64,000 bases of DNA from an uncultured Spirochaetia bacterium (GTDB lineage Bacteria; Oederibacteriota; PGYV01; CAYNMZ01). The notes under the pieces were generated by a model. The model had not been told where the DNA came from, ran no database searches, and was given only the letters and a program-made list of their open reading frames with translations. The stretch covers positions 394 through 64,393 of the forward strand of contig CAYNMZ010000001.1 of NCBI GenBank assembly GCA_964398505.1, written 5' to 3'. The translations under genes and the position numbers were made by a program. Each line of letters begins with the position of its first letter. The stretch's first letter is position 1. Below, piece after piece: positions 11,886 to 54,016 of the stretch.

Positions 11886-11995
11886 ATTATGGTTTTTATC
11901 GTAAATTTTAAATCATTTCAATGTGTAATAATTATGTCCATGTTTATAATTATAAAATAACATAATAAAAATAAAGGGGTTTTTTGTGTATTCTA

Positions 11996-12025
11996 TGTGG
12001 ATAATTGTGTATAACTTGTGGAAAT
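11996..12025 (+). promoter_or_regulatory. Head-to-tail triplet of DnaA-box-like 9-mers (ectopic DnaA-box cluster)
   Basis: TGTGGATAA (11996-12004, perfect), TGTGTATAA (12006-12014, 1 mismatch), TGTGGAAAT (12017-12025, 2 mismatches) with about 10-bp phasing, in the AT-rich gap between convergent genes. Confidence 0.4.
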
Positions 12026-12044
12026 CACGAAAGGACGAAAAATG

Positions 12045-29752: not shown

Positions 29753-32230
29753 TTATTCCTCTTCCTTTTCTTCTTCTTCCTCTGCTATCCTGGCCACAGC
29801 ACTCACCTTTTCCGCATCCTTAAGCTTGATGAGCCTTACGCCCTGGGTATTACGTCCTATAGTCTTTATATCAGCGACTTTTGTCCTGATAAGCGTTCCC
29901 TTCGTCGTTATTATCATAAGCTCATTAGTATCATCAACCAGCTTGATCGAAACAACCTGCCCGGTTTTTTCCGTTGCTTTTATATTTATTAATCCTTTGC
30001 CGCCCCTGCTCTGCATCCTGTACTCGGAAACCTTGGTCCTTTTGCCAAAACCGTTTTCTGTCACTGTAAGAAGTGTTCTATTCTTTTCATCCGCAGGTAA
30101 AACTGTCATGCTGACAACCTTGTCCTTTTTGGAAAGAGTAATCCCCTTAACGCCCATGCCTGTCCTTCCTATTTCCCTGAAGTCCTTCACCTTTGTCCTT
30201 ATTGCCATGCCTTCCCGGGTGGCGATGAAAAGCTCGTCCTTTTCGCCGGCTATCTTGGTCTCAATCAGGGAATCGCCGTCGTTGAGCCCTATCGCTATTA
30301 TGCCGCCTGACCTGGGATTGGAAAAAAGCTCAAGGTTTGACCTTTTTACAAGCCCGCTTTCTGTCACCATCATCAGGTACCTGTCGTTCTTGAATTCCTT
30401 TACAGAGACGTAGGCCGCTATCTTTTCGCCTTCCTCAAGCTTTAAAAGGTTTACTATTGCTTTCCCCCTTGTGTTACGCGCGCCTTCTGGTATTTCGTAA
30501 ACTTTCAGCCAATGGCAACGCCCTTTGGAAGTGAAAAACATAAGGTATTCATGGGTATTTGAAACAAAAAGGTCCTCCACGAAATCCTCATCCTTGGTGT
30601 CCATGGCAATTATTCCCCTTCCGCCCCTTTTCTGCGCCTTATACATGGAAACCGGTGTCCTTTTGATGTATCCGGCGTGGGTTATGGTCACAACCATATC
30701 CTCTTCCTGTATCAGGTCCTCGACGGAAAGTTCCTTTTCCCTCTGTATTATCTCCGTGCGCCTCGCGTCGCCGTACTTTTTCTTTATTTCTTCAAGCTCG
30801 CCGGCCATAAGCGCGAATATTTTTTTCTCGCTTGCGAGAAGCTCCTTTAAACTCTTTATCAGCTTCTGCAGTTCGTCATACTCCGCGTTTATCTTTTCAA
30901 TTTCAAGTGCCGTAAGCTGCTGCAGTCTCATGTCCAGTATTGCCTGCGCCTGAATCTCGGTAAGCTCAAAACTCTCAATTAACCCTTTTTTCGCGTCCTC
31001 AACGCTTTTTGATGCGCGTATAAGCTTTATAACCCTGTCAAGATATTTTAACGCAATTTTTAGGCCTTCAAGTATGTGAGCCCTTTTTTCAGCCTTGTCA
31101 AGCTCGAATTTTGCCCTGCGTATTATTATTTCCTTCCTGTACTCTATAAAATTATCTACAAACTCCTGTATATTTAATATCTTAGGCCTATTATTCACAA
31201 GGGCAAGAAATATTATTCCAAAAGTGGTCCTTAAGCTTGTATGTTTGTAAAGCTGGTTTAGAACTATCTCAGGATTTTCGTTTCTGCCTATCTCTATTAC
31301 CGCCCTCATGCCGTCCTTATCAGATTCATCCCTCAATCCCGTTATACCTTCTATCTTCTTGTCCCTGACAAGATCGGCAATACTTTCAATAAGCGCGGCT
31401 TTGTTTACCATGTAAGGCAGCTCGGTTATCACTATCTGCTGCCTGCCGTTCTTTTTTTCCTCGATTTTCGCCTTTGCCTGCATAGTAACGGAGCCTCTGC
31501 CCGTTTTATAAGCGGATTTTATTCCTTCCATGCCGATTATATAAGCGCCTGTCGGAAAATCCGGGCCCTTTATTATCTTTAATATGTCATCTATAACATT
31601 TTTCTTTTCCAAATTTTCAAGCCTGAAAATAACCGCGTCAATTACCTCGGTCAGGTTGTGGGGGGGTATGTTTGTGGCCATGCCTACAGCGATGCCGGAA
31701 GAGCCGTTCACAAGAAGATGCGGAAACCCTACAGGAAAAATTACAGGTTCTGTGTTTGATTCGTCATAAGTTGGGATGAATTCAACCGTATTCTTGTCTA
31801 TATCCGTTATTAACTCCTCTGATATTTTTGCCAGCCTTGCCTCTGTATAACGCATTGCCGCGGGCGGGTCTCCGTCAATTGAGCCGAAGTTTCCCTGGCC
31901 CTGCACAAGCGGCATCCTGTACGTGAAATCCTGCGCCATCCTGACCATAGTGTCGTAAATGGCCTTATCGCCGTGCGGGTGGTAATTACCCATGACTTCG
32001 CCGACAATCTTTGCTGATTTCCTGTAGGGCTTGTTGTAATGGAGCCCCATTGTATACATGGTGTAAATTATCCTTCTTTGCACGGGCTTTAGACCGTCCC
32101 TGATATCCGGCAGCGCCCTTCCCACAATGACGCTCATTGAATAATCAAGGTATGAAACTTTCATCTGCTCCTCTATCGGGGCTGGCACAACTTTTACGGC
32201 CGTCGGAGGCTGTAGGGGTTTTTCGTCCAT
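29753..32230 (-). CDS. gyrA: DNA gyrase subunit A
   Basis: [27 protein letters not shown], active-site Tyr region, C-terminal beta-pinwheel repeats and acidic tail EEEEEKEEE; AGGAGAA RBS before ATG 32230. Confidence 0.95.
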
Positions 32231-32310: not shown

Positions 32311-33417
32311 TCATTTCCTTATCGGCATAACCACATAAATAAAGCTTTCATCGCCCGCGGGTTTTATAACGCCGGGGTTCATGGAGCTTATCAGCTTGAT
32401 CTCAACTTCCGGCGTTTCCGTCACTTTCAAGACGTCCATGAGATACGAGGCGTTATAGGACACCTCAATGGGCTCGCCGTCGTACTTGGCGTCAATTTCC
32501 TCATAAGCTTCGCCCTCGTCCTGTGCCTGCGCGTTTATGAACATCTTGTCCTTTTCAAATTTCAGAATCACTATCCTCGCCTTGTCGCTGGATATTGTCG
32601 AGGCCCTGCGTATGCAGCTTTCCATCTCAGCCTTTGAAACAACGGCTGTCATCCCGAATTCCTTTGGTATCACCTGGCTGTAATTCGGGTAATTCTCGTC
32701 AGTTATCCTTGATATTATGTCTATATTATCCAGCTTAAATTCAACAACCTTGCCGTAGAAATTAATCTCTATATCCTTGTCGTCCTTCCCTTCTATTATC
32801 CTGGCCACTTCATTGATGGTTTTTAAGGGTATTATGTAGCTGAACTTGGCCTTTACCGATTTTTTCATTTCCTTTTTATAGAAAGCCAGCCTGTGCGCGT
32901 CAGTGGCAACAGCCTCCACTGTATTTCCCTCAAACTTGAAAAACACACCGTTTAAATTCCTTTTTGAAGTGTCCTTAAGCGCGGCGTATGATATGTTTTT
33001 AAGTATTTCCTTCAGCTGTTTTTGCGGCATGGTGATTGACTCAAGTTTTTTGTCTTCAGCCTGTAAAAGAGGGAAATCCTCTGCCGGAAGGCCGGGTATC
33101 CTGTATGAGGATTTCTTGCACTGAAGCTTTATATTGTCGTTTTTATCCGACTCTATTTTTATTTCATCATCCGTAAATTCCTTGATAAGCGACACAATCT
33201 TCCTGGGTATGGTTGTCCTTCCTGGTTCCTCAACCTTGCTTACCCTGCATTTTATCTTTACCGACATGTCCATATCAGTGGCTGAAAAATTCAGGGTATC
33301 CCCTTCTGCCTCAAAAAGTATGTTTGAAAGCAACGGCAGGGTGGATGTCGCTGGTATAAAACACTGGGCGATCTGCAGGGAGTCAAGGATTTCCTTTTTA
33401 TTTGTCTTTATCTTCAT
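32311..33417 (-). CDS. dnaN: DNA polymerase III beta sliding clamp
   Basis: 368 aa; three-domain beta-clamp, directly downstream of dnaA. Confidence 0.95.
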   Translation of the reverse strand: MKIKTNKKEILDSLQIAQCFIPATSTLPLLSNILFEAEGDTLNFSATDMDMSVKIKCRVSKVEEPGRTTIPRKIVSLIKEFTDDEIKIESDKNDNIKLQCKKSSYRIPGLPAEDFPLLQAEDKKLESITMPQKQLKEILKNISYAALKDTSKRNLNGVFFKFEGNTVEAVATDAHRLAFYKKEMKKSVKAKFSYIIPLKTINEVARIIEGKDDKDIEINFYGKVVEFKLDNIDIISRITDENYPNYSQVIPKEFGMTAVVSKAEMESCIRRASTISSDKARIVILKFEKDKMFINAQAQDEGEAYEEIDAKYDGEPIEVSYNASYLMDVLKVTETPEVEIKLISSMNPGVIKPAGDESFIYVVMPIRK

Positions 33418-33707
33418 AATGCCTCCTTTTTTAATGTGTTCTCCACATTATTTTATATACAATAAAAACAATTGATATATTAATATACATTGCTGCTGCT
33501 GTTCTTGTACTGTTAATAACCTTGATAATACATTTAACCCTTTTTAAATAAAGGGTTACTTATGATACTTAAATGTTAATATAAGCCGGAATCCGCGGTT
33601 CTTGTCAACATTTTAGCCGTCTTTTGCACAATTAAAGCTTAGAAACTGAATGCGCCTTGTTTTTCAACATATTGCGCACATGGTTGCCTACATGTTGCTG
33701 ACAATGC
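33418..33707. promoter_or_regulatory. dnaA-dnaN intergenic region: AT-rich candidate DNA-unwinding element with DnaA-box-like 9-mers (part of a bipartite oriC)
   Basis: Very AT-rich (ttttatatacaataaaaacaattgatatattaatatacat); TTGTCAACA at 33602-33610 and TTTTCAACA at 33661-33669. Confidence 0.4.
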
Positions 33708-35057
33708 CTATTTTTTTACCCTTGCAATGAGCTCATCCACGGTATTTTTGAACTTATCGTCGGATTTTATAAGTTTTTCTATTTTCTCATTGGCGTGCAT
33801 TACCGTGGTGTGGTCCTTGCCGCCAAAATACTGCCCGATCTGCACCAGGGAGTAATCCGTAAGCTGCCTTGTTATGTACATTGCTATCTGGCGCGCGGTA
33901 GCTATGTTCTCCGGGCGCTTTTTTGAGGAGAGGTCCTGTATTTTTATGTTGAAGTAATCAGCCACGATCTGCTGTATCAGGTCTATGCCGATCTTTTTTA
34001 CGGCCTCAAATGACGGGTTCGTGGTCTTGATAGCCTGCTTGGCAAGGTCCAGGGTTATTTCCCCGCTGTTCTGGGCGGCAATGGCCGTCAGGGTAAGCAG
34101 CGTGCTGCTTAAGTACCTGACATTGTTGTCCACATGCTCAGCTATGTAACCTATGACATTTTCGGGAACATGCTTGTTAAGCTCGGCCGCTTTCTGCTTT
34201 AATATCGCGACCCTAGTCTCAAAATTAGGCGGCTGTATGTCAACTATGATACCGGCTGATAGGCGGGATTTTATCCTGTCCTCTATGTTAAGCTCCTGCG
34301 GAGGTGAATCGGACGTGGCCACTATCTGCTTGTTGAGGTTGTAAAGGTCGTTGAAGGTGTGAAAAAACTCCTCCCTGGCCTGAACGCCTTTCTGCAGGTA
34401 CTCAATGTCGTCCACAAGCAGGAGGTCGACGCTCCGGTATTTTTCCTTGAACTCGTCAGTTTTGTTCTCGCGTATTTTCTGGACGAGCTCAAACAGGAAC
34501 TTTTCCGCTGTTGTGATAAGTATCCTGGAAGAAGGAGACCGCTCGTACAGGTAATTCCCTATCGCGTGCAGAAGATGCGTTTTGCCAAGGCCGACGCCCC
34601 CATAAATGAAGAGCGGGTTGTATGTCTGGCCCGGAGCCTCGGCAACAGCCCTGCAGGCAGCGTGCGCGAACCTGTTGGCATCCCCGACAATGAAGTTATC
34701 AAACTTGTACTTTGTATTAAGGTAGGGGATGGACTCGGCTTTGGAGTCAAGCGGCAGCTGTATCTGCTGTTCCTTTATTGTGATTTTCGGGGAGTAATCT
34801 TTTTTGGCCAGTTCCTTCTTAACTTCTATTGAAAGCGTCACGGCAGGGTCCAGGTATTTACGCAGAAAGACAAGAATGTCGTCAGTATACTTGGCTGTGA
34901 TTGTTTTTTTGTGAAGAGGGTCCGGAACTTCAAGAGTGAAGACTTTGTCATTCTCGCTGTAATTGGCTTCTGACTTGTCCAGCCAGAGCTGCAAGTTGTT
35001 GTTTTCAGTCTTTATTTTTTCAAGAATGCTGTTTATCCTGTCGTTTTCAGCTGACAT
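33708..35057 (-). CDS. dnaA: Chromosomal replication initiator DnaA
   Basis: 449 aa; Walker A GGVGLGKTHLL, C-terminal DNA-binding GGKDHTTVMHA; AGGAGGG RBS. Confidence 0.95.
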   Translation of the reverse strand: MSAENDRINSILEKIKTENNNLQLWLDKSEANYSENDKVFTLEVPDPLHKKTITAKYTDDILVFLRKYLDPAVTLSIEVKKELAKKDYSPKITIKEQQIQLPLDSKAESIPYLNTKYKFDNFIVGDANRFAHAACRAVAEAPGQTYNPLFIYGGVGLGKTHLLHAIGNYLYERSPSSRILITTAEKFLFELVQKIRENKTDEFKEKYRSVDLLLVDDIEYLQKGVQAREEFFHTFNDLYNLNKQIVATSDSPPQELNIEDRIKSRLSAGIIVDIQPPNFETRVAILKQKAAELNKHVPENVIGYIAEHVDNNVRYLSSTLLTLTAIAAQNSGEITLDLAKQAIKTTNPSFEAVKKIGIDLIQQIVADYFNIKIQDLSSKKRPENIATARQIAMYITRQLTDYSLVQIGQYFGGKDHTTVMHANEKIEKLIKSDDKFKNTVDELIARVKK

Positions 35058-35400
35058 TTATACTGCCAACCCTCCTGATGATATAAAAACGCAGTTTTAA
35101 GACGTTTTCCACAATACTCACCGATATTTTACACATAAACTATACACAATTAAAAGCCTTATTTAAAAGGCAAAAAAGCAATTTTCAACATATAAATAAC
35201 ATAATTATCAACATGTTAGGCACAATGCTTTAAAAAATCAAAAAAACACATAAATATACTGTGGATATTATATCATAAATACATTTATTTGCAACAGCAA
35301 AAATGGGTAATGGTAATAATGGGTAATGGTGGGTAATGGGGTAATTCTTGGGTAATTCTGGGAATACTGGTTAATTCAGGATTTTTGAACAAATCGTATT
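35058..35400. promoter_or_regulatory. Candidate oriC, dnaA-upstream part: degenerate DnaA boxes plus phased GGTAAT repeats
   Basis: TTTTCCACA 35105-35113, TTTTACACA 35127-35135, TTATCAACA 35205-35213, TGTGGATAT 35260-35268 (reverse orientation); six GGTAAT copies between 35306 and 35356. Confidence 0.5.
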
Positions 35401-35507
35401 GGAAGAACTCGGGGTGATAATGGTAAATTGAAAAACAAATTGATGGCAACGAATATAACAATAAAATACCGCTCGCGATAAGCTCAATGATAATCGCTCG
35501 GGTATAA

Positions 35508-35546
35508 GTTTCCGTAATATCCGATACTACCGGATATTACGGAAAC
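35508..35546. repeat. Perfect 16-bp inverted repeat GTTTCCGTAATATCCG-N7-CGGATATTACGGAAAC
   Basis: Read directly at 35508-35523 and 35531-35546; lies between the OMP-gene terminator and the oriC repeats. Confidence 0.6.
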
Positions 35547-35550
35547 TAAA

Positions 35551-35590
35551 CAAAAAAACCCGGCCGCGAATATGCGGCCGGGTTTTAAAG
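35551..35590 (-). terminator. Rho-independent terminator (bidirectional) after the outer-membrane protein gene
   Basis: CCCGGCCGC-gaatat-GCGGCCGGG stem (35559-35582) with T7 on the minus strand (plus A-run 35552-35558) and TTTT on the plus strand. Confidence 0.7.
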
Positions 35591-35608
35591 CCTTTACTTA
35601 TATCTTGT

Positions 35609-36910
35609 TTATTTCCAGGCGTAGTTGAAGTCAAGCGCGGCAGTCGGCTCAAGTGAACCGTTGAGATATTTCGCTCCTGCTGATGCGCAAACCTTTGATT
35701 CGCCGAGTTCCCACACGATGCCGACAGCGCCGACAACCGGTGAATTGTTCCAAGTGCTGCTGCCCTGTGAAAGGTCTGTCGGGTCAGCTGTGTACGGATC
35801 ATCCTCGGTCAGGTCAAGAGTCTTGTTCGTGTAGTTATTTACAACGATGACTTCCTTGGTTATGCCGACCGTGGCCGAGAGATTGTCATTTGAGATTGTC
35901 CAGATCTTGCCGAGGTCAACAGCGACAGCAAGCGTGAAAGGTATTGCAATTTCCATTTCCGAGCTGCCGTCAGCATTGGTGTATGTCTTTGTATCAGCAA
36001 TCTTGTCTTCTGTCACTGCCTTGTAGGCGCCGTTTGTCTTGATGTTAAGCCCTGAACTTAAGAGCACATTCAGCGTCTTTGAAGCTTCAATTTTCTTGCC
36101 TGCGATTAAGCTGATGTCCATGGAGCTGTCATCGCTTGTGGAAATGACATGTGTTTCAGGGTCATCATCAGCGTCAGTGTTTAACCACGTGATTGACTGG
36201 TACTGAAGCGAAGAAAGAGTCAGGTTTAAAGCAAGCATAAGGCCTGCAAGCTCTGTCTTTGCGTCAAGCGCGAAGTCAAGGCCGTTAAACGTTGTCTTGG
36301 GGTTTGAGCCCAGGTCTTCTGTTGTGCCTACATAGTCTTTGGTTTCGGTGTAATATCCCGGAAGAGCCACTGAAAGGGACGCGTCAAGAGGGATTCCTAC
36401 ATCAAGCGACGCGCCTGCTGCTATCCTAAAAATTGTTCTGTTTGTGCTTGTTTCATCGCCGCCGTCAAGCTCAACTCCGCCCGCGCGCAGGGCCTTTTCT
36501 GTATCGTTGTCAACGCCGTATCCTACTGAAAGGCCGACGCTGATGTTCTTGTCAAGGCCGAGAGCATAGCCCAGGTTGAATGTTGTGGAAGGAACGTTGT
36601 AGCTTGTGCCGACTGAGAGAAAATCAACTGATCCGAAAGCCCTGTTGCCGGCTCCAACGAGCAGTGTTCCGGGCCCTATGTTCGTGATGATCATGCCCGA
36701 CGCGGCGGTTCCGGCAGGTACCGGGATTTCAATTCCGATGACAACCTTGTTCGCGAATCCGCCGAGAAGAGCCGGGTTGATGAGAGCGTTTTCCTCAAGG
36801 TTTGTGAGCTGGACAGGCGTACCGCCGAGCCCAATGAGACCTGCTGGAGACGCAACAACCGCGGATGACAGCATTAATACAACTGCGATTAAAGCTAATG
36901 CCTTTTTCAT
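35609..36910 (-). CDS. Putative outer-membrane beta-barrel / surface protein
   Basis: Signal peptide MKKALALIAVVLMLSSAVVAS; Gly/Ser/Thr/Asp-rich with alternating strands; C-terminal ...FNYAWK. Confidence 0.55.
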   Translation of the reverse strand: MKKALALIAVVLMLSSAVVASPAGLIGLGGTPVQLTNLEENALINPALLGGFANKVVIGIEIPVPAGTAASGMIITNIGPGTLLVGAGNRAFGSVDFLSVGTSYNVPSTTFNLGYALGLDKNISVGLSVGYGVDNDTEKALRAGGVELDGGDETSTNRTIFRIAAGASLDVGIPLDASLSVALPGYYTETKDYVGTTEDLGSNPKTTFNGLDFALDAKTELAGLMLALNLTLSSLQYQSITWLNTDADDDPETHVISTSDDSSMDISLIAGKKIEASKTLNVLLSSGLNIKTNGAYKAVTEDKIADTKTYTNADGSSEMEIAIPFTLAVAVDLGKIWTISNDNLSATVGITKEVIVVNNYTNKTLDLTEDDPYTADPTDLSQGSSTWNNSPVVGAVGIVWELGESKVCASAGAKYLNGSLEPTAALDFNYAWK

Positions 36911-37177
36911 GCGAATTTCCTCCTTAAGATTTTGTGTTTCGGAAATCTTAAAACAGTTTTTTGGCCCTTAATCACCGCCCTTTCTGTTTTTTAGAAAGAA
37001 TTATTCCATATGTTATGTAAATAGCTTCTTTATCTGCAGTTATTTTGTGGAGAACCCTAATAAACCCTTTATATTAATTGGCATATTATAGATTAAATTA
37101 TGGTTAAAAGTCAAGAGAAAAAAGAGAGAAAAAAAAAGAGAGAAAAAAGACAGTATGCAACCAAAATTCCGCGCTTT

Positions 37178-37213
37178 AAAACAGTTAAAACAGTTAAAAC
37201 AGTTAAAACAGTT
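37178..37213 (+). repeat. Tandem repeat (AAAACAGTT)x4 abutting a TTGACT -35-like hexamer, preceded by AG-rich AAGAGAGAAAAAA x3
   Basis: Four exact 9-mers at 37178-37213; TTGACT 37213-37218; purine tract 37113-37152. Confidence 0.6.
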
Positions 37214-37275
37214 TGACTTTTTCTTTGGCATTGTGATACCATAAATTAACTGAAAATTAATTTTAGGGGTGAAAA

Positions 37276-37689
37276 ATGGACAAGACATTAAGGATGCTGA
37301 TGGCGGGAATTGTGGCCGGATTTATTCTTTTCCTTGTTGTAAGCCTTGTTTACCATTATACAGGCTCTATATCAGACCCTTCAATTTCAAAACTTTTCAA
37401 GGAAACAATATCAATGAAATGGTTTTACAAGTTACTTTTGCTTAACATAGGCTCAGGCATTATAATGGCCTTTTTTTACGCAATGATCGCGAACGGCCTG
37501 CCGGGAAGCGGGATTTTCAAGGGCGTTTTTTGGGGGTTCATAGTATGGCTCATAATGGTGCATCAGCCCATGATACTACACATAGTCGCGGGCAAGTTCA
37601 ATACAAACCTTCTTTTGACCTGGGTTCTGCAGGGACTTACAAGCTATGTGGCTGCAGGCGTCAGCATTTCAATAATATACAAGCAGTAG
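37276..37689 (+). CDS. Small integral membrane protein, hypothetical
   Basis: 137 aa with 4 predicted TM helices; GGGG-rich RBS region before ATG. Confidence 0.45.
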   Translation: MDKTLRMLMAGIVAGFILFLVVSLVYHYTGSISDPSISKLFKETISMKWFYKLLLLNIGSGIIMAFFYAMIANGLPGSGIFKGVFWGFIVWLIMVHQPMILHIVAGKFNTNLLLTWVLQGLTSYVAAGVSISIIYKQ

Positions 37690-37690
37690 G

Positions 37691-38977
37691 TTAAAGGTTG
37701 CTTACGGCGTTTTTAAGTTCCCTTATGGCGCAAAGCTCGCCGCACATGGTGCAAACCTCGCTGTCATTGGGCATGCAGCTTTCCCTCATTTTCCTGGCTT
37801 TTTCAGGGTCTATGGCGAGCTTAAGCTGGCTGTCCCAGTCAAGGTTTTTCCTCGCTTTTGCCATCTCATTGTCACGCGCTATGGCGCCCGGATAGCCCTT
37901 GGCAATGTCAGCTGCATGCGCCGCTATCCTGGACACAATGACGCCTTCCCTGACATCATTAACATCAGGCAGTTTCAGGTGTTCAGCGGGAGTGACATAG
38001 CAGAGAAAATCAGCGCCGTGATAGCCGGCAAGCGCGCCGCCTATGGCAGAGGTAATGTGGTCATAGCCGGGAGCGATGTCTGTCACAAGCGGGCCAAGCA
38101 CATAAAAAGGCGCGTTATTGCAGAGTTTCTTCTGGATTTTCATGTTTGTCTCTATTTCGTTCAGGGGCACATGGCCCGGGCCCTCTATCATAACCTGCAC
38201 GTTTTTCTCATAGGCGCGCCTGGCAAGGCTGCCCAAGGTTATCAGCTCCTGTATCTGCGCCCTGTCTGTCGCGTCAGCAAGACAGCCGGGCCTCATGCCG
38301 TCGCCGAGGGACAGGGTCAGGTCGTATTTGTAAGCTATGTCAAGCAGCCTGTCGTAGTCCGAAAAAAGCGGGTTTTCCTTGTTGTTTTTTATTATCCATA
38401 CAGCCAGCATGGAGCCGCCGCGGCTCACTATGTCAAGCAGCCTGCCCTGAGAACGGAGCGCGTCTACAGAATGCCTTGTTATTCCGCAATGCACTGTCAC
38501 AAAATCCACGCCTTCCATTGCCTGCTGCTCAATGGCTGAAAAAAGGTCGTCAGCGGTCATTTTATGCATCATTTTCCTGTCCTTTATTACCTCAACCATT
38601 ACCTGGTAAATCGGGACAGTGCCTATGGGCACAGGGGAATTTTTTATTATCTCGCGGCGTATCGAGCTTATGTCTCCTCCTGTGGAAAGGTCCATGACCG
38701 CGTCAGCGCCGGCTTCCACGGCGGTCTTTAACTTCAACAGTTCGGTGTTTAGGTCGCACACGTCAGCAGAGCTTCCTATGTTCGCGTTGACCTTTACGCG
38801 CATTTTTCTTCCTATCGCAACGCTTCTGGTGTTTTTATGGTTTTTGTTGAAAGGTAAGACTACTTCACCGGAGGCAATAAGCGACAAGAGCTCCTTTTCA
38901 GGAATGTTTTCCGCTGCCGCCGCTTCCTTCATCTCGTCCGTTATTACGCCTTTTTTGGCTGCTTCAAGCTGGGTCAT
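37691..38977 (-). CDS. thiC: Phosphomethylpyrimidine synthase ThiC
   Basis: 428 aa; strong ThiC similarity including C-terminal CX2CX4C (CTMCGELC). Confidence 0.95.
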
Positions 38978-39599
38978 TTATGAGCTCCTTGAGTTTTTTT
39001 ACCTTTGTGAAAACATCGCGGCTGCCGCATATTTCTGAAATGAAACAGAAATTTTTAACGCCGCATTTTTTTAATTTTAAAATATTATACTCCTTTATAC
39101 CGCCTATTGCAACCACGGGGGTTTTCAGTTTTTTTAGGAGCCTGCGCAGCGCCGCCAATGACAGGGGTTTTTTATCCTTGTTTTCGGTCTTAAAGACAGG
39201 GCCGAGCCCTATATAGTCTGCCTTAAGGCTGTCAGCTGACATGGCTTCTGCATATGTTGAGGCGGAAACCCCGAGCAAGCGATTTTTTCCGATTATTTTC
39301 CTTGCTTCGTGGACAGGCGTGTCATCAAGCCCCACGTGAGCGCCGTCAGCACGGCATTTTGCCGCTATGTCGGGCCTGTCATTTATGATAAGAGGGACGC
39401 CCGCGCGCCTGGTAAACTTTAAAGTTTTTCCTGCCAGTTTTAAAAATTGCGCTGTATCAAGGTTCTTGCAGCGTAACTGGACGGCTGTTACTCCAGCTTT
39501 TAAGGCAGGCAGCAGCACTGATAAAATACTTCTTTTTGTCAGGCGCAGGTAATCATAGTCCAGTATGAGATAAAGAGAAAGGTCAATTTTTTTTGTCAT
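38964..39599 (-). CDS. thiE: Thiamine-phosphate synthase ThiE
   Basis: 211 aa; TIM-barrel ThiE motifs (YLILD..., [15 protein letters not shown]). Confidence 0.9.
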
Positions 39600-40014
39600 A
39601 AAAGGACATTACGGTTTTTTCGGCGGTATATGACTTATAGCGCAGTTCCTTGAAGAGGCCGGCGCTTTTTGGGGAATACAGTTTTATTATTTCCTCAAGC
39701 ACCCGGAGGGATTCCTGGCTGCGCTTGAAATTAGAGGCGAGCACTTCACGCAGGGAATGTCTTTTAAATTCAGCCGCGCATTTTATCCTCCGGCCTGCGT
39801 CCTTTTCACTGTCCCTTCCGTCAAGGAGCTTGGCGTAGCTTAAGGGAAGCGAGGCGTCAATGCCGTGGCGCAGGTTTTTCAGGACAGATGAAAGTCTTTT
39901 GTTTTTAAGAATAAAACGGGCTATGTCCTCGCAGACGCGCAGGCCTTCCTTTGCACGGTTTGTGTTCGCGTCAATTAACGCGGACAATTCCCTACTGGCG
40001 CCATTTGTTTTCAC
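39583..40014 (-). CDS. Hypothetical protein translationally coupled to thiE (possibly a ThiD2-like/ThiE-associated domain protein)
   Basis: 143 aa basic protein overlapping the thiE start by 17 nt; no recognisable motif; the family assignment is a guess from context only. Confidence 0.35.
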   Translation of the reverse strand: MKTNGASRELSALIDANTNRAKEGLRVCEDIARFILKNKRLSSVLKNLRHGIDASLPLSYAKLLDGRDSEKDAGRRIKCAAEFKRHSLREVLASNFKRSQESLRVLEEIIKLYSPKSAGLFKELRYKSYTAEKTVMSFYDKKN

Positions 40015-40228
40015 TTATTGAGTCCAGCAGGTTTTTAAGGAATTTTTTTATAGAGACTCCCTCGTCAATCCACTTGCCAACTATGAACCCGAGGACGACA
40101 AGACATATGATAAGGAGGGTGTTTAAGGGCTTTAAAAATATCAGGGATATGGCCAGCAAAAAGCCGAGTATGACACCGGCTGTCTTGCCAAAATGCATGA
40201 ACAGCAGTTTCAGGAAATCATTACCCAT
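39992..40228 (-). CDS. DUF2273-like small membrane protein (Asp23 operon partner)
   Basis: 78 aa, two TM helices; sits with AmaP-like and Asp23 genes as in Firmicutes. Confidence 0.5.
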   Translation of the reverse strand: MGNDFLKLLFMHFGKTAGVILGFLLAISLIFLKPLNTLLIICLVVLGFIVGKWIDEGVSIKKFLKNLLDSISENKWRQ

Positions 40229-40790
40229 TTTTTGCCTCTTCCCCGGACGACCTGTACGCTATCTTGCTTACTATTACGGTTGGCTTAACAGGCGCCTCAA
40301 TTCCGAGAGTATATTGTATGTAACGGATTATGGATTCCTGTATGGCCTGCGTGGTTTCGGCCACTGCCTTATCGGAATACAGCGTCACCTTGGCTATGAC
40401 AGTCAGGCCCTTCCTCTTGGAAAGGACCCTTCCCTTAATTTCTTTTACTGCATCTATTTCATTTTTTACCACCTTTGAAAAATCTTCTATTGCTGAAAGG
40501 GACACAAGGATTTCACCGTGGGGAGACTGCAGGACCACGGTCCTTTCGCTGCGCTTGCTTTCTATATTGGCTATAACGGTCAAAATTGCGATAGCCAGAA
40601 GAAATATGCCGAAGGAAAGAAGCGAAATCCTGGCAGGCATGGACTGGTTCAGGTAATTAGCAAGTGTCTGCACCCACTGCAGCCAAAGCTTGTTGGCTGT
40701 GCTACTTATTGATATGGAGGCAGTAAATATGCCGAAAAAGGCGAAAAGGAAAACCGTGATGCCCAGAAGTATGCGGTTGAATATTTTCAT
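40221..40790 (-). CDS. Alkaline-shock-response membrane anchor protein AmaP-like
   Basis: 189 aa; N-terminal TM pair, soluble C-terminus; directly downstream of the Asp23 gene. Confidence 0.5.
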   Translation of the reverse strand: MKIFNRILLGITVFLFAFFGIFTASISISSTANKLWLQWVQTLANYLNQSMPARISLLSFGIFLLAIAILTVIANIESKRSERTVVLQSPHGEILVSLSAIEDFSKVVKNEIDAVKEIKGRVLSKRKGLTVIAKVTLYSDKAVAETTQAIQESIIRYIQYTLGIEAPVKPTVIVSKIAYRSSGEEAKNG

Positions 40791-40818
40791 TAAAAAAATC
40801 CTCCTTGGTTTTGCGGGG

Positions 40819-41184
40819 TTATTCCCCTGCCATAACGTTATTTATGCTGACACTGTTTATATTTACATTGACCTGTTCAACGTTAAGCCCTGTCATTTTT
40901 TCTATGTTTTCTTTTATAGCATCCTGGACATTGGCAGCTACATCCGCAATTTCCGCCCCGAATTTAACTATAATATTTATCTCTATTGAAACAGACTCGG
41001 GACCCATCTCGGCTTTTACTCCCTTTCCTGCTTTTTTTACGCCTATCATTTCAGATATGTTGGCCATAGTTCCGCCGTCAAGGCCGGCTACTCCGTCAAC
41101 CGACTTGGCGGCTATGGCCGCTATCGTGCATATGGCCTCGTCAGATATTTTAATGTTGCCTGTCTCGTTTTTATCAACGGGCAT
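40819..41184 (-). CDS. Asp23/Gls24 family envelope stress protein
   Basis: 121 aa; ISDEAICTIAAIAAKSVDGVAGL... typical Asp23 N-terminus. Confidence 0.75.
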   Translation of the reverse strand: MPVDKNETGNIKISDEAICTIAAIAAKSVDGVAGLDGGTMANISEMIGVKKAGKGVKAEMGPESVSIEINIIVKFGAEIADVAANVQDAIKENIEKMTGLNVEQVNVNINSVSINNVMAGE

Positions 41185-41199
41185 TTTCCACCTCTGGCA

Positions 41200-42552
41200 C
41201 TATTGTTTTTCCTTTTCCATTTTTTCAATAAATGCTGTTGAATAATTATTGGATATGAAGTTTTCGTTTTCCAGTATTTTCCTGTGAAGAGGTATTGTGG
41301 TCTTTATCCCTTCTATCACAAATTCGTCAAGCGCCCTTTTCATCCTTGAGATGGCCTCTGCCCTGTCCTTGCCGCGCGCAAGTATTTTTGCCACCATTGA
41401 GTCATAGTAAGGAGGAATCCTGTAACCTTTATAAACGTGCGTGTCCACCCTGATACCGGGTCCGCCGGGAACATTGTACTCGGTAATTGTGCCTGGCGAC
41501 GGGCAGAAATTATTGTCAGGATCCTCAGCGTTTATTCTGCACTCTATGCAATGGCCTCGAAGCTTTATGTCCTTGTGTCCGGGGATAGTCATCCTCTGTC
41601 CGGCCGCGACTTTTATTTGCTCTTTAATAAGATCAAAGCCCGTGACTTCCTCGGTGACAGTATGCTCAACCTGTATCCTTGTGTTCATTTCCATGAAATA
41701 ATAATGGCCGTACTTGTCCATTATGAACTCTATTGTGCCTGCGCCCTCGTATTTTACGGCTTTGGCCAGTCTTATTGCCATGGCGCACATTTCATGCCTG
41801 GTTTTTTCGTTTATCATAGGCGAGGGAGATTCTTCCACAAGTTTCTGATGTCTTCTCTGCACGGAACAATCCCTCTCCCCAAGGGCTACGCAGTTGCCGT
41901 GAACATCGGCCATTATCTGTACTTCTATGTGCCGAGGTTCCTCTATATATTTTTCAAGGTATATTGCGGGGTTTCCGAAGGCTGTCTGAGCCTCCTGGCT
42001 CGCTGTCTTGAAAGCTGTCCTTAATGAAAGTTCGGTATGCGCAATCCTCATACCGCGTCCGCCGCCGCCGGCAGTTGCTTTCAGCATTACAGGAAGGCCT
42101 ATTTTTTTTGAAATTTCAACGGCATCGTTTTCATCGCGCAGTATCCTACCTGAGCCGGGAACCGTTGAGACTTTGTGTGCGACAGCGGTTGCTATGGCTT
42201 GGGCTTTGTCTCCCATGGCCCGTATGGCTTCAGGCGAAGGCCCGATGAATTTAATATTGCATTGCCCGCAGAGCTCGGCGAAATGAGCGTTTTCCGCCAA
42301 AAATCCGTATCCCGGATGTATGGCTTCTGAATCGGTTATTTCTGCCGCTGAAATTATGGACGGTATGTTAAGGTAGCTTTCTTTTGAAGGGGCGGGGCCT
42401 ATGCATACTGCATGGTCAGCGTACCTTACGTGCAGTGAATGCTCATCAGCCTCGGAGAAAACAGCCACAGTCTCAATGCCAAGCTCTTTGCAGGCCCGTA
42501 TTACCCTTAACGCTATTTCTCCTCTGTTTGCTATAAGTATGCGTTTGAACAA
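41200..42552 (-). CDS. accC: Acetyl-CoA carboxylase biotin carboxylase subunit
   Basis: 450 aa; [22 protein letters not shown]..., ATP-grasp. Confidence 0.95.
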
Positions 42553-42565
42553 ATTTGCACCGGTT

Positions 42566-43078
42566 TTATATTTTTTCGATAATGATTATCGGCTGATTAA
42601 ACTCAACTGCTTGAGCGTTTTCCACAAGGATCTCTTTTACCTTACCTTTTACCTCGCACTTTATTTCATTCATTATTTTCATTGCTTCTATAATGCACAG
42701 GGTTTTGCCAGGTTCCACATTGTCTCCTATGTTTATAAAAGGCGGAGCTTCAGGCGAAGGAGCCCTGTAAAAAGTGCCGACCATGGGGGATTTAACAGAT
42801 ACTTCGTTCGGATTTTCCTGGGGTTTTGCTGCAGCTGCGGGAGCTGCTGATTGCGGCAAAGCCGCCGGAGCCGCAACAGCAGGCATCTGCGCCTGATATA
42901 AAGGTTGAACCGGATTTTGAGTAAATGATACTGAGCCGGCTTTTTTAAGCTGGATTTTTATTGAGCCGTCCTCATACAGGAGCTCGCAAAGGTCGCCTTT
43001 TTCCATTATCTTAACAGCCTGGTTCAAAGCCTCGGAATCTATCTTTGATTTTACAGGTTTTGACTCTTTTTTGGGCAT
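42566..43078 (-). CDS. accB: Acetyl-CoA carboxylase biotin carboxyl carrier protein
   Basis: 170 aa; Ala/Pro-rich linker, biotinyl-Lys motif EAMKIMNEI. Confidence 0.9.
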
Positions 43079-43092
43079 TTTACCCTCCTTGA

Positions 43093-43659
43093 TTATGCGG
43101 TTTTAACCCGTTCGACATATTCTCCTGTTCTTGTATCAATCCTAATAATGTCCCCTTCTTTTATAAACATCGGGACTGAGACTTCGGCCCCTGTTTCCAC
43201 CACAGCAATTTTGTTCGCGTTTGATACGGTGTCGCCCTTGACAGCCGGGGGCGAGGAAGTGACTTTAAGATCCACTTTTGTGGGAAGGCTTATTCCGAGC
43301 ACTTCACCTTCTGCTATGAGCATAGAAATCATCATTTCTTCCTTGAGAAATTTCTTCTGTTCACCAACCTGTTTTTCGTTGAACTCATACTGGTCATAGG
43401 TTGTGGTGTCCATGAAATGATAGGTGTCTCCCTGCGAATACTGGAATTGCAGTTTTTTCTCCTCCACCGGCGCTTCCTCAAACCTGTCGTCCGGGGAAAA
43501 GGTCTTTTCCACGTTTGTGCCAAGCTTGAAATTCTTCATCTTGATGCGCACAAGCGGCGCGAGCCTGGGCCTTTGTACGTGGTGGAAATGAACGCATTCG
43601 TAAATGATGCCCTCGTGCTTGAAAAGCGACCCGGGCCTTAATTCCATTGCTGACGGCAT
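43093..43659 (-). CDS. efp: Elongation factor P
   Basis: Start set at ATG 43659 ([10 protein letters not shown]...), 6 nt after AAGGAGG; the track's 237-aa ORF adds 49 unsupported residues. Confidence 0.9.
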
Positions 43660-43682
43660 GCCAAAATCCTCCTTGAAAATTT

Positions 43683-44741
43683 TTAACCTGCGATTATAAG
43701 TCCGTCCGGGAGTTTTCCCAGTTTTTCCGGCCCTTTCGGGGTTATCAGGTAATCGTCCTCTATCCTGATGCCAAGCCTTCCTTCCATATATATGCCCGGC
43801 TCGCATGTGAATATCATGCCTTCCCGGAATTTCTTTTTCTGCCTTGAGTTCACATATGGCGGCTCATGGACCTCAATTCCCATGCCGTGGCCGAGCGAAT
43901 GGGTAAAGAGCCTGTCAAAACCGCCCTTCTTTTTAAGGCAAATCCTGGCAGCCAGGTCAGCTTCCCTGATAAAACAGCCGTTTTTATAGGCTTTTACAGC
44001 TTCGGATTTGGCTTCCTGCACGGTTTTATAATGTTTTTGCACTTCCTTAAAGCGAGCTCCTATTATACCGAAGCTGACACACCTTGTCAAGTCAGAACAG
44101 TAGCCTTTGTGTCTGACTCCCGCGTCAATCAATATGAAGCCCGGTTTTGCCAGTTTTATACCGGAAGTTTTATGGTGCGGAACAGCCGAACCTGAGTCAA
44201 AAGCGACGATCGGGCTGAAGGAAACGCTGTCTGCCCCGTGCTTGCGCGCGAAATACTCAAATTCAAGGCTTAAGTCCTTTTCTGAAATGCCGGGCCTTAA
44301 AACAGAAACCGCGTGCATCAGGGACAGTTCATTGATTTCAACAGCCTTCCTGATAAGGCTTATTTCATCGCTGTCCTTTATGGCGCGCATTTCAGCAAGT
44401 TCGGAGCTTATGGAAATTCCCGCGAATTCCCTTATTGAAAGGTATTCCTTCAGCGATGTTGAAGCGGGTAAAAGCGCCTTGCGCCGCGCTGAAGTGATTT
44501 TTTTGAGGTCTTTCATCAGGTTTTTTGTTATGACAACGCAAAAAGACGAAGGTATTGGGGATTTTTCAACTTCCTCCCTGTATCTTGAGTCTGTTATGAA
44601 GAAGCTCTCCTTTTGCGTGACCGCTATCCTGGCGAAAGTCCCGGAAAATCCGGAAAGATAGAAAATATCCGCAGGATTTGAAACGAAAAAGAACTCAGCC
44701 GGATTGACGCGCGCGCTGAGACGCGATATCCTGTCCTTCAT
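43683..44741 (-). CDS. Xaa-Pro aminopeptidase / M24 family peptidase (YqhT-like)
   Basis: 352 aa; metal-ligand motifs HSLGHGMGIEVHE, EPGIY..., IRIEDD; precedes efp as in B. subtilis. Confidence 0.85.
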   Translation of the reverse strand: MKDRISRLSARVNPAEFFFVSNPADIFYLSGFSGTFARIAVTQKESFFITDSRYREEVEKSPIPSSFCVVITKNLMKDLKKITSARRKALLPASTSLKEYLSIREFAGISISSELAEMRAIKDSDEISLIRKAVEINELSLMHAVSVLRPGISEKDLSLEFEYFARKHGADSVSFSPIVAFDSGSAVPHHKTSGIKLAKPGFILIDAGVRHKGYCSDLTRCVSFGIIGARFKEVQKHYKTVQEAKSEAVKAYKNGCFIREADLAARICLKKKGGFDRLFTHSLGHGMGIEVHEPPYVNSRQKKKFREGMIFTCEPGIYMEGRLGIRIEDDYLITPKGPEKLGKLPDGLIIAG

Positions 44742-45352
44742 TTTGTGATTATGGCCAGGTTGTATTCAAGGAAAGGCCGGTAAAGTGGGATTTTTTCCGC
44801 CATGTTCATGATTGTTTCGCCAAAGTCCGTGACTGCCTTGCTCTTGAAAGGAAGGCAGCGCGCTGAGAAATGTTTTATCTCAAAACTTGCGCCAGCCGAC
44901 TCAATAAGCTTCTTGAAACGTTTCTGGCTGAAATGCTGGTGGTTCTGTATGAGCACCATGTTCAGGTACATGGGCGGGTTGTACCTGTTGCATTCAAGGG
45001 CGATCACCCTTTTTTTTGACACGCGCACCATTTCAGAGAGGGCCTTTTCAGGGTTCTGCACATGGTGGAGCATGTTTTGCTCAATCACAGTGTCAAAGGA
45101 ATTGTCGGGAAATTTCAGGTCCTCGGCGCCGCAGACCGAAAATACAAGTTTTTCCGAGGCGCGCTCCTTCCACAGAGGGTCCTCGCAAATGTCGCAGGCG
45201 TGAATTTTCTTGAAGTACGCGGACAGCAGGACATCGTCCTCGCCGTGGCCGCATCCGGAGTCAAGCAGCGTCTCTCCGTGCAGGTAGGGTATGACCCTGC
45301 TGAAAACGCGCTCCTTAAAGCGCAGGACATTGTAAGGCAGGTTAAGCGTCAT
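44738..45352 (-). CDS. Class I SAM-dependent methyltransferase
   Basis: 204 aa; motif I LDSGCGHGED, acidic D after beta-2 (ACDI). Confidence 0.7.
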   Translation of the reverse strand: MTLNLPYNVLRFKERVFSRVIPYLHGETLLDSGCGHGEDDVLLSAYFKKIHACDICEDPLWKERASEKLVFSVCGAEDLKFPDNSFDTVIEQNMLHHVQNPEKALSEMVRVSKKRVIALECNRYNPPMYLNMVLIQNHQHFSQKRFKKLIESAGASFEIKHFSARCLPFKSKAVTDFGETIMNMAEKIPLYRPFLEYNLAIITK

Positions 45353-46370
45353 ATTTTTTCAGGCCCGCTATAACTTCTTTTAACTCGGGGACATCAAAGA
45401 ATTTCCTGCCGGTTATGCCGTTTGTGACTGCCAAATACATGTCAGACAGCAGTTTTTTCATTTCAGGAGGAAGGTTTGGCGGCTGGTTTTTGACTGATTT
45501 TTTCCAGTCGCTGCCGTTTTCTTTCTTTGCCTTTTCTATTTCTTCGTACCAGGCGGTTTTCCTGTACCAGCGCCGCGCGAATTCCTTGCTTATATGAAAA
45601 TCTCCGTACATGAACCTGCACTCGTCAGGAGTGCCCAGCACGTCTATCACGATTATTTCGCCGGATGTGTCTATGCCGAACTCAAACTTTCCGTCCACGT
45701 TTGTTATCCCCGCGGATTCGCACACGCCGGTTATTATACTGTTTATCCTGAGTATCAAGTCTTTAACCTTTGATATATCGCTGTCAGAAAGACCGGATAT
45801 TTCCTGGGCTTCTTTCCAGTCTATGTACCTGTCGGTATGTTCAAGCTTTGTTGAGACATCAAGCACCGGGATTTTAAGTTTTTCCCCGGGAACGGGCATA
45901 TGGTCAAGGCCGAGGGACTGATAAGTCGCAGAGCCGCTGCTTATCCTCTTGAAAACGCTGGACCCTTCGGGCAGGCTGTTCCTGTAAATTACTTCCAGAG
46001 GGATAAGGTAGTTTTTCTGCTTTTTTTTGTATTCCGAATAGTCGTATTTGTTTGATGACTTGTCATAAGGCGGTTTTATTACACGCAGGACCTTTACGCG
46101 CATCTTATTTGAATAAGATTTTAGGTCATGGAATTTTTTGGGAACGCCATTTTCCATAAGGCCCAAAAAGTGCGTTTTAATACCGTTTTTTTCAAGAAGA
46201 TGGAAGAAATATGAGGAAAGTGTGCACAGGGCAGCGCCCTTTTTGTCTATATGGTCCGGCATTTCACCCCAGTCAAACACGGAATAGCGGTCTGAAAAAA
46301 TAAATTCACCCTCGCCTTCCCTGTCATCGGCGGCCGGCCTTAGGATCTCAACTTCCTTTACGCTTCCCAT
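45342..46370 (-). CDS. purC: Phosphoribosylaminoimidazole-succinocarboxamide synthase (long form)
   Basis: Conserved SAICAR synthetase blocks (FSDRYSVFDW; IPLEVIYRN; NVDGKFEFG) with a roughly 100-aa C-terminal extension. Confidence 0.8.
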   Translation of the reverse strand: MGSVKEVEILRPAADDREGEGEFIFSDRYSVFDWGEMPDHIDKKGAALCTLSSYFFHLLEKNGIKTHFLGLMENGVPKKFHDLKSYSNKMRVKVLRVIKPPYDKSSNKYDYSEYKKKQKNYLIPLEVIYRNSLPEGSSVFKRISSGSATYQSLGLDHMPVPGEKLKIPVLDVSTKLEHTDRYIDWKEAQEISGLSDSDISKVKDLILRINSIITGVCESAGITNVDGKFEFGIDTSGEIIVIDVLGTPDECRFMYGDFHISKEFARRWYRKTAWYEEIEKAKKENGSDWKKSVKNQPPNLPPEMKKLLSDMYLAVTNGITGRKFFDVPELKEVIAGLKKYDA

Positions 46371-46443
46371 CTTTACACGCTCCTTGTTTGGCGGTTTAAG
46401 ACCGTGTTATTTTAACAAAAGGGCGTGATTTCGACAAGCCCGA

Positions 46444-53927: not shown

Positions 53928-53997
53928 ATTGTTCCACGTGGAACAATCATAGGTTGGAATGAATATATCAATGGGTCATTGTTCCACGTGGAACAAT
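53928..53997. promoter_or_regulatory. Two copies of a perfect 20-bp palindrome ATTGTTCCACGTGGAACAAT (candidate operator pair) upstream of recF
   Basis: Exact copies at 53928-53947 and 53978-53997 (centres 50 bp apart); first abuts a TTGACA -35 (53899-53904) region, second overlaps the recF RBS region; motif found nowhere else in the window. Confidence 0.6.
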
Positions 53998-54016
53998 GCC
54001 TTGCTATGGAGACAAA

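Follow-up and report, generated by a model that had tools for sequence, protein, structure and literature searches.

A conserved DnaA-box cluster upstream of dnaA and a candidate unwinding module in the dnaA-dnaN spacer of an uncultured Candidatus Goldbacteria genome

The window analysed here is a 64,000-nt stretch of DNA from an uncultured Candidatus Goldbacteria genome, and its interval 35058-35608, which a first-pass annotation had put forward as a candidate chromosomal origin of replication (oriC), is the exact intergenic gap between the initiator gene dnaA and an uncharacterised gene encoding a 433-aa protein, with dnaN following on the far side of dnaA (Table 1). Alignments with relatives (A1, A3) and scans for DnaA boxes divide the interval into a conserved proximal part of about 270 bp next to dnaA (features at 35105-35294), which holds the predicted dnaA promoter and a cluster of DnaA boxes, and a private distal part (35296-35547), which is unalignable with the relatives and has no counterpart in any of them. 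In protein searches the nearest DnaA matches are metagenome proteins at 83-87% identity, followed by a second tier at 56-74% that includes proteins of NCBI metagenome-assembled genomes (MAGs) labelled Candidatus Goldbacteria or Goldiibacteriota; beyond this clade DnaA identity falls to about 46% (Bacillota and others). The DNA of relatives was obtained via protein search and exact-protein look-ups, and 12 distinct syntenic Goldbacteria loci were compared: a close set of five distinct relatives at 85-87% DnaA identity (L081/L082, treated as one, L083, L084, L093 and L094) and a more distant set at 56-73% (L085-L090). The gene order dnaA-dnaN-gyrA-histidine kinase-...-DciA-gyrB is common to the loci compared. 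A search of the searchable literature for Goldbacteria together with dnaA returned nothing.

A scan allowing up to two mismatches identified seven DnaA boxes in the proximal part, the six of shared orientation having start-to-start spacings of 11, 23, 42, 13 and 22 bp. At the window-wide density 0.8 boxes would be expected in these 243 bp (35058-35300), and the distal 308 bp contain one box against 1.0 expected; with at most one mismatch, three boxes lie within 164 bp upstream of dnaA. The dnaA-dnaN spacer holds six boxes in 290 bp against 0.96 expected (up to two mismatches), and the clustering of DnaA boxes well above background by which an oriC is recognised is found both upstream of dnaA and in the spacer. 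Counted from the dnaA start codon, the box positions -212, -168, -157, -134, -90 and -57 are also occupied in all five close relatives, which often carry a perfect TTATCCACA where the window box has one or two mismatches, and distant relatives carry two to five boxes in about 220 bp, one of them at or just past the -10 element. We conclude that the conserved box cluster of the proximal half is genuine, and DnaA would be expected to bind to it. The box variants that the first-pass annotation had reported at 35105, 35127, 35205 and 35260, above chance as a group, and TTGTCAACA and TTTTCAACA, which it had reported in the spacer, are all present. Its suggestion that the variant TTATCAACA reflects a lineage-specific box consensus did not hold: the domain IV box-reading motif DHTTV is intact in the window DnaA and relatives carry a perfect TTATCCACA at homologous positions, both of which argue against such a consensus, and TTATCAACA and TTTTCAACA are also found beside trio arrays in several unrelated bacteria, Bacillota among them.

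The leader of dnaA contains one further short element between its boxes, the inverted repeat GCCTT-N6-AAGGC, which is kept in most relatives and shows compensatory-looking variants in L090 (CCCT..AGGG) and L087 (CTTAT..ATAAG); it might form a hairpin in the leader or be bound by a protein. Box-like motifs have also been arranged as 11-bp-period tandem arrays in two distant relatives, TATGTTAATAA in four copies upstream of dnaA in L088 (9881-9936) and ATATCTTGTTG in 4.3 copies in the dnaA-dnaN spacer of L089 (7351-7397).

The distal part carries the two repeats that make the interval conspicuous. The six GGTAAT copies described at 6-11-bp spacing were confirmed, starting at 35306, 35312, 35322, 35332, 35340 and 35351 (spacings 6, 10, 10, 8 and 11), and are beyond chance: six copies per 60 bp compare with a maximum of one or two in 200 Markov simulations, and they form the strongest non-homopolymer hexamer cluster of the window. 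Tandem Repeats Finder (TRF) assigns the array a period of 10, with 6.8 copies and 73% matches, at 35312-35377. On the dnaA-sense strand the unit reads ATTACC(C), and the -35 hexamer of dnaA follows 12 bp after the end of the array. It is absent from the five relatives at 85-87% DnaA identity and from more distant ones, and in L081 an unrelated 7-bp repeat, (ACAGCTA)x4, stands in its place just upstream of the promoter. The distance from the upstream gene's terminator to the -35 hexamer is about 10-45 bp in L094 and L084, where the terminator almost touches the promoter, against about 255 bp in the window, and L083 and L093 have unrelated sequence there; the array lies in this part, the only one of the intergenic region whose length varies freely. 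Short tandem repeats of other units are also found in neighbouring intergenic regions, and that at 36911-37275 holds a perfect 9-bp repeat, TTAAAACAG, in 4.2 copies (37176-37213) as well as an A/G-rich 12-14-bp repeat (37114-37150). A comparison of 35296-35608 with plasmids and phages by blastn gave no match and hence no sign of a mobile element; Rfam 15 over 33000-37500 gave sub-threshold, hairpin-driven matches only, with no family at the gathering score. Small open reading frames (ORFs) within the array were considered and rejected, the frames being stop-ridden on reading the sequence. The GGTAAT array is most likely a slippage-generated, lineage-private repeat.

Plasmid iterons and the low-affinity DnaA-site arrays of the Escherichia coli oriC are same-orientation direct repeats set roughly one helical turn apart, and the GGTAAT repeats resemble them in having one orientation and roughly helical-turn spacing. 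They differ in a core of only 6-7 bp, in irregular spacing (6-11 bp), in their privacy to the lineage and in the lack of a Rep gene, the neighbours being dnaA and the gene for the 433-aa protein. Iterons are near-identical 17-22-bp repeats with regular spacing and a cognate rep gene, so that the description of the array as iteron-like fails on unit length, regularity, rep gene and conservation alike.

The second conspicuous repeat, the perfect 16-bp inverted repeat, was likewise found as described and is beyond chance. It is nearly palindromic to its centre, its arms extend to 20 nt at 95%, and as RNA it would fold at -27.2 kcal/mol (z-score -7.5). On the transcribed strand it begins 6 nt past the T-run of the terminator of the upstream gene. 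The latter element (35555-35586) has the G+C-rich hairpin and U-tract that define an intrinsic terminator, whereas the 16-bp repeat is a strong hairpin with a T-run on neither strand. It is absent in L081-L084, L093, L094 and more distant relatives, and unchanged in the metagenome contig L091, which is 99.9% identical to window positions 35483-38157, therefore derives from the same population, and ends just before the GGTAAT array. A metagenome scan for the palindrome returned two matches, L091 and an unrelated high-G+C contig, L092, in which the same 12+12 core CCGTAATATCCG..CGGATATTACGG with 18-nt arms (605-639) lies in an operator-like position between divergent ORFs that, judged from sequence only, are transporter-like and secreted binding-protein-like; this match is probably a coincidence. 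One arm and the loop of the palindrome (35511-35526) also share 16 consecutive bases, CCGTAATATCCGATAC, with 11415-11430 in the 5' part of a metallophosphoesterase gene (KIAVISDTH motif), where by our estimate about 0.02-0.05 such matches are expected. The GTTTC...GAAAC ends of the palindrome were considered as parS and rejected, true parS-like sites being present elsewhere in the window. With low confidence, we suggest that the palindrome acts as an extra 3'-end or read-through-blocking RNA hairpin on the transcript of the upstream gene.

Both repeats could be given a function in regulation or initiation. The GGTAAT array might be a functional, helically phased protein-binding array, serving either a lineage-specific regulator of the dnaA promoter or DnaA itself at low-affinity sites. 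Its clustering is non-random with a period of about 10 bp, and it lies at about -47 to -118 from the predicted start, in the zone of upstream activators; its units read TTAcCCAnn on the dnaA-sense strand, a DnaA box with two to three mismatches that always points the same way as the promoter box. In the box scan one unit (TTACCCACC) counts as a two-mismatch box, and the GTAAT core recurs in both palindrome arms. We nevertheless consider a functional array unlikely, since it is missing even from the five relatives at 85-87% in which the promoter is otherwise conserved, L081 has an unrelated repeat unit at the same place, the 64 kb contain no other GGTAAT cluster, and the units are copies of each other, so that their resemblance to weak boxes counts as a single event. 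The inverted repeat, in turn, might work as DNA rather than as an RNA hairpin, either as the operator of a dimeric regulator or as a cruciform-forming origin element, a proposal to which its perfection and length and the operator-like setting of the L092 core between divergent transporter genes lend some appeal. Such a role is very unlikely in our view: arms of 16-20 bp far exceed usual operator half-sites, no regulator gene adjoins the repeat, it is absent in relatives, and a single unrelated match in a very large collection fits chance, perfect hairpins being common by our estimate. The first-pass annotation had named non-conservation in relatives as one observation that would speak against its repeats as oriC elements, and the comparison shows that neither the array nor the palindrome is conserved.

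The position of the origin was addressed by a regression of per-gene skew, for total GC and for GC at third codon positions (GC3), with coding strand and a step function as predictors. The best step for both measures, at 33.0-34.0 kb, separates the centre of dnaN from that of dnaA, and its residual sum of squares is 2.2-2.7 times below that of the strand-only model. GC3 skew on the plus strand is +0.086 for dnaA and -0.118 for dnaN, and the switch from negative to positive has the sign of an origin rather than a terminus. Relatives with nearly all genes on one strand show negative GC3 skew upstream of dnaA and positive skew from dnaN/gyrA onward, with dnaA itself negative or near zero. The replichore switch expected at an oriC is thereby placed at about one-gene resolution. 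The dnaA-dnaN spacer also contains the 45-bp duplex with the lowest stability in all 64 kb (33447-33491), which lies between a reverse box and the combination of box pair and period-3 array; an A+T-rich element beside a box, of the kind that an oriC should contain for unwinding, is found there, outside the flagged interval.

This spacer module is well conserved. All 12 loci, whose DnaA proteins span 56-87% identity, show the same order when read in the dnaA sense: reverse boxes close behind dnaA, a forward tandem pair, directly adjoining it a period-3 array, 78-92% A+T and a further reverse box ahead of the dnaN ribosome-binding site. The weak spacer boxes of the window correspond to TTATCAACA and to perfect TTATCCACA in relatives, and most relatives have TGTGGAAAA on the dnaA-sense strand at the place of the reverse box. 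The array has a clade consensus on the dnaA-sense strand of RTA followed by about six YAR triplets. Each of the six triplets behind the initial one has its central A in 9-12 of the 12 loci, and nowhere else in the spacer are invariant columns packed as densely; the 40-bp scoring window adjoining the array is 92% A+T. From these alignments the spacer block is the most conserved non-coding block of the clade. Just before the tandem pair, 33535-33558 forms a hairpin with a 9-bp stem (TAACCCTTTATTTAAAAAGGGTTA), and several relatives have a hairpin or terminator-like element there; it may mark the end of the dnaA transcript.

A comparable module is the basal unwinding system (BUS), which consists of one or more DnaA boxes, DnaA-trios and an AT-rich region, the trios reading 3'-GAT-5' on the strand opposite the box (PMC8287927). 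When the spacers of unrelated phyla were scanned in the same way, this canonical module recurred in Bacillota, Omnitrophota, Sumerlaeota, Firestonebacteria, Acidobacteriota and a cyanobacterial MAG, its typical form being TTATCCACA-tatccacag-ccc-CTA CTA CTA TTA CTA CTA with A+T-rich sequence behind it. The published permissive rule asks for a box and, no more than 16 bp after it, three or more NAN triplets (3'-NAN-5' on the strand opposite 5'-TTATCCACA-3'). In the Goldbacteria spacer a box with up to two mismatches, usually in tandem, faces the array as it should, TTATCAAGG and TTATTAACA abutting the array and the arrangement recurring in 12 loci. On the expected trio strand, however, the array reads TTG/CTG with essentially no A or C, so the rule finds no run of at least three trios beside the spacer pair. 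The survey that defined the rule had foreseen deviant trios without a central adenine (PMC8287927).

The residues with which DnaA reads the single strand have diverged as well. In B. subtilis, Asn187 of DnaA hydrogen-bonds to the central adenine of a trio, the first two trio bases are captured, and only A or C is tolerated at the central position (PMC10721633). Aligned to the B. subtilis DnaA of PDB 8BTG, the window DnaA has Phe for Asn187, Val for Ile190 and Lys for Arg202 and keeps Glu183 and Glu228, so that the set of trio-capturing residues of the initiator-specific motif (ISM; Asn187, Ile190, Arg202, Glu228) is incomplete. Among 62 DnaA proteins of the clade position 187 is Phe in 32, Ile in 12, Tyr in 11 and Asp in 3, with others in the remainder and Asn in none (0/62); Asp is found on the deepest branch of the clade. 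Asn187 is present in 59 of 59 hits from outside the clade and in 76 of 80 DnaAs of diverse GTDB genomes, and the nearest outgroup examined, Firestonebacteria, combines Asn187 with a canonical CTA array. Four DnaAs from outside Goldbacteria lack Asn187: L038 and L052 have neither dnaN nor an A+T-rich spacer after dnaA, L050 is a high-G+C sequence with no clear array, and L062 (Ile187) retains a short, mostly canonical CTA/TTA array, which is mildly negative for covariation of residue and array. The change at residue 187, paired with the change in the array, suggests rather than proves a re-specified single-strand recognition.

Table 1. Features at and around the dnaA locus of the window.
Feature	Position	Strand	Remarks
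dnaN	32311-33417	-	
Reverse DnaA box TTCTCCACA	33439-33447	+	just upstream of dnaN ribosome-binding site
Candidate DNA unwinding element	33448-33489		42-bp A+T-rich gap between array and reverse box
Period-3 array GTA CAA GAA CAG CAG CAG CAA	33490-33510	-	
Tandem forward box-like pair TTATCAAGG (33520-33528), TTATTAACA (33511-33519; 2 mismatches)	33511-33528	-	in all 12 loci
Three weak DnaA boxes: TTGTCAACA (33602-33610), TTTTGCACA (33622-33630), TTTTCAACA (33661-33669)	33602-33669	+	dnaA-proximal spacer
dnaA, 449 aa	33708-35057	-	Pfam Bac_DnaA + Bac_DnaA_C; ISM divergent, Phe at B. subtilis Asn187 position
Upstream DnaA-box cluster	35105-35268		seven 9-mers, six in one orientation; up-to-2-mismatch scan
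DnaA box TTTTCCACA	35105-35113	+	
DnaA box TTTTACACA	35127-35135	+	
DnaA box CTATACACA	35140-35148	+	
Inverted repeat GCCTT-N6-AAGGC	35156-35171	-	short, conserved; dnaA leader, between boxes
DnaA box TTTTCAACA	35182-35190	+	
DnaA box TTATCAACA	35205-35213	+	
DnaA box TTAGGCACA	35216-35224	+	
DnaA box ATATCCACA	35260-35268	-	reads TGTGGATAT on + strand; overlaps promoter -10
Predicted dnaA promoter TTGCAA-N16-TATAAT, extended TG	35267-35294	-	-10 overlapped by DnaA box; kept in L081, L083, L084, L093, L094
Degenerate ~10-bp tandem repeat, six exact GGTAAT (35306-35356)	35296-35377	+	private to lineage
Perfect 16-bp inverted repeat, arms 35508-35523 and 35531-35546	35507-35547		private to lineage
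Intrinsic terminator of 433-aa gene	35555-35586	-	13-bp G+C-rich stem then T-run; equivalents in relatives
Uncharacterised gene upstream of dnaA, 433 aa	35609-36910	-	
Two identical perfect parS-like palindromes TGTTCCACGTGGAACA	53930-53945 and 53980-53995		between rsmG/gidB (53142-53858) and recF (53996-55111)

The oriC of Bacillus subtilis is bipartite, with the incA and incB box clusters upstream of dnaA and incC in the dnaA-dnaN spacer; Helicobacter pylori likewise has a bipartite origin, oriC1 lying upstream and oriC2 downstream of dnaA; and dnaA promoters are autoregulated in, for example, E. coli and B. subtilis. The Goldbacteria locus is like the B. subtilis oriC in that two box clusters flank dnaA, with the promoter within the upstream one, and like H. 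pylori in that dnaA separates two box clusters, the unwinding element being downstream; it differs from the latter in its trio-type array, and supercoiling-dependent boxes and a half-half interaction are H. pylori features (PMC8235120). The B. subtilis BUS comprises DnaA-boxes #6/#7, DnaA-trios and an AT-rich region (PMC8287927, PMC6669920, PMC10721633), which the Goldbacteria spacer parallels with its forward box pair, period-3 array of about 18-21 nt, A+T-rich block and dnaN. The differences are in the array, which is YAR (CAA/CAG/TAA) on the box-sense strand rather than YTA (CTA/TTA) and therefore 3'-GTT-5' rather than 3'-GAT-5' on the expected strand, with almost no A or C; in the lack of a G+C cluster between box and array; in Phe, Tyr or Ile in place of Asn187; and in the degenerate boxes of the window genome. 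As in autoregulated dnaA promoters, a DnaA box of the window overlaps or closely follows the predicted -10, while the window is unlike E. coli and B. subtilis in its long leader (about 210 nt) with six further boxes.

Taken together, these data make it likely that the flagged interval is the dnaA-upstream control region, composed of three unrelated parts, a gene end, a fast-evolving spacer and a conserved promoter and box part, and that strand opening occurs in the dnaA-dnaN spacer. At its distal end the terminator of the upstream gene would be followed, 6 nt on, by the second, perfect hairpin, which might act on the same transcript, although we hold this last role with little confidence. The fast-evolving spacer between terminator and promoter would then have gained its repeat of about 10 bp, replication slippage being the likeliest route, and would be dispensable for origin function. 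At the proximal end, the promoter with a box over its -10 and the six same-orientation leader boxes make up the upstream cluster, on which DnaA would repress its own promoter and which may in addition be a DnaA-loading platform, as in bipartite origins that flank dnaA. Opening of the strands would most likely take place beyond dnaA, at the box pair 33511-33528, the array 33490-33510, the least stable duplex 33447-33491 and the reverse box 33439-33447. In function as in architecture, the locus would belong with the dnaA-flanking origins of B. subtilis and H. pylori and is probably bipartite like them, the flagged interval supplying the upstream box cluster and a putatively autoregulated dnaA promoter. 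Its flagged features are ordinary or lineage-private, and the neighbouring unwinding module is plausibly a new variant. The earlier proposal of an oriC at 35058-35608 thus stands in part, as the interval adjoins the replichore switch and its proximal box cluster is conserved; its GGTAAT array and palindrome are private, and it is the dnaA-dnaN spacer that holds both the best-conserved module of the unwinding type and the duplex of lowest stability. Conspicuous repeats beside dnaA are not automatically origin elements, and here the inconspicuous degenerate boxes are the conserved part.

Several observations weigh against this account. The oriC-associated boxes of this genome are all imperfect, and the upstream cluster may serve dnaA regulation only rather than origin firing. 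The role proposed for the hairpin is drawn solely from its position. By skew the switch is placed to no better than about one gene, and dnaA GC3 skew is about zero in three relatives. The raw cumulative skew forms a plateau at 33.5-48 kb with its global minimum at 44431; the raw G-C curve is flat because the genes at 33.7-47.8 kb are all on the minus strand, where coding bias cancels replication bias. Finally, the spacer array fails the BUS rule on the expected strand, whereas the flagged interval itself yields a formal hit, formed by the box at 35260-35268 and an A-run at 35233-35247 in a stretch of 84% A+T.

That formal hit invites the alternative that the flagged interval is a complete oriC, in which DnaA bound at 35260-35268 oligomerises onto the A-rich strand at 35233-35247 and opens the 84% A+T stretch at 35229-35290. 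The match has the correct polarity on the plus strand (5'-AAA AAT CAA AAA AAC, N12, TGTGGATAT-3'), and 35229-35290 is A+T-rich, ranks fourth among the least stable 60-bp windows and sits inside the box cluster. We regard a complete oriC here as distinctly improbable. The hit is a low-complexity A-run with no periodic array in relatives, L081 having GGGTGTTTGACAG there; dnaA carries the far-side skew sign in the window and in four of seven relatives; and it is the spacer that contains both the 45-bp duplex of lowest stability and the one period-3 array with deep conservation. The spacer array could itself be read otherwise, as an RNA element of the dnaN leader, an unstructured (ARN)n or CAA-rich tract that would serve as a binding site for Hfq or S1 or as a translation enhancer. 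Shifted by one base it yields six ARN triplets (AAG AAC AGC AGC AGC AAT), and it lies 81-102 nt from the dnaN start codon in nine of ten loci. Set against this, the array always abuts the tandem box pair at zero offset with the A+T-rich block always next, the parts follow one another exactly as in the canonical unwinding modules of other phyla, the box-array-AT order persists in L081 although the distance to dnaN grows there to 141 nt, and the promoter scan detected no promoter that would transcribe the array, which is preceded by a hairpin; an RNA role is accordingly one that we doubt, if somewhat less than a complete oriC upstream of dnaA.

Strand opening in the dnaA-dnaN spacer, the reading that we prefer, leaves the question of how the module there should be classed. 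Since neither the central adenine on the trio strand nor Asn187 is present, it is not filed as a canonical BUS, yet it very probably works like one. A more specific and more tentative proposal, for which the evidence at hand falls somewhat short of making it our expectation, is that Goldbacteria use a re-specified unwinding module in which the trio strand is 3'-GTT-5' instead of 3'-GAT-5' and Asn187 has been replaced clade-wide. The recent model of origin opening, drawn from structure, is built on the capture of the central adenine by Asn187 (PMC10721633). If true, the proposal would imply initiator-origin co-evolution toward a different single-strand code, or engagement of the opposite strand. 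As a candidate phylum that lacks both Asn187 and the expected-strand adenine and keeps the overall module, Goldbacteria would offer a natural test case for the flexibility of the DnaA single-strand recognition code.

Elsewhere in the window, two other positions were considered as origins and rejected. The gene-orientation switch at 47.8 kb has an intergenic region of only 85 bp, and the genes at 33.7-47.8 kb have the leading-strand GC3 skew of a rightward fork. About 14 kb of genes to the right of the proposed origin (33708-47798, dnaA included) are in fact head-on to the rightward fork and yet carry leading-strand GC3 skew, an arrangement that is the same in relatives. A box cluster at 11.9 kb was rejected as an active origin, there being no skew switch at that place. 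It lies at 11886-12044, between convergent metallophosphoesterase and peptidase U32 genes, and comprises four DnaA boxes that share one orientation and are spaced 10-11 bp apart, TGTGTATTC, TGTGGATAA (the window's sole perfect box), TGTGTATAA and TGTGGAAAT. Ahead of them lie GGGG, TAA TAA AAA TAA and the duplexes that are the least stable in the window at both 30 and 60 bp (11915-11974). The layout is canonical-BUS-like, and the cluster may represent either a relic origin or a datA-like group of DnaA boxes.

The parS-like palindromes, rsmG and recF lie 20 kb away from the dnaA locus, which fits an origin-proximal region. Directly after dnaN the window has gyrA (29753-32230), rather than gyrB or recF; in the relatives L085-L088 gyrB follows several genes on, past a histidine kinase, a NosD-like protein and a gene of the DciA family of helicase loaders.

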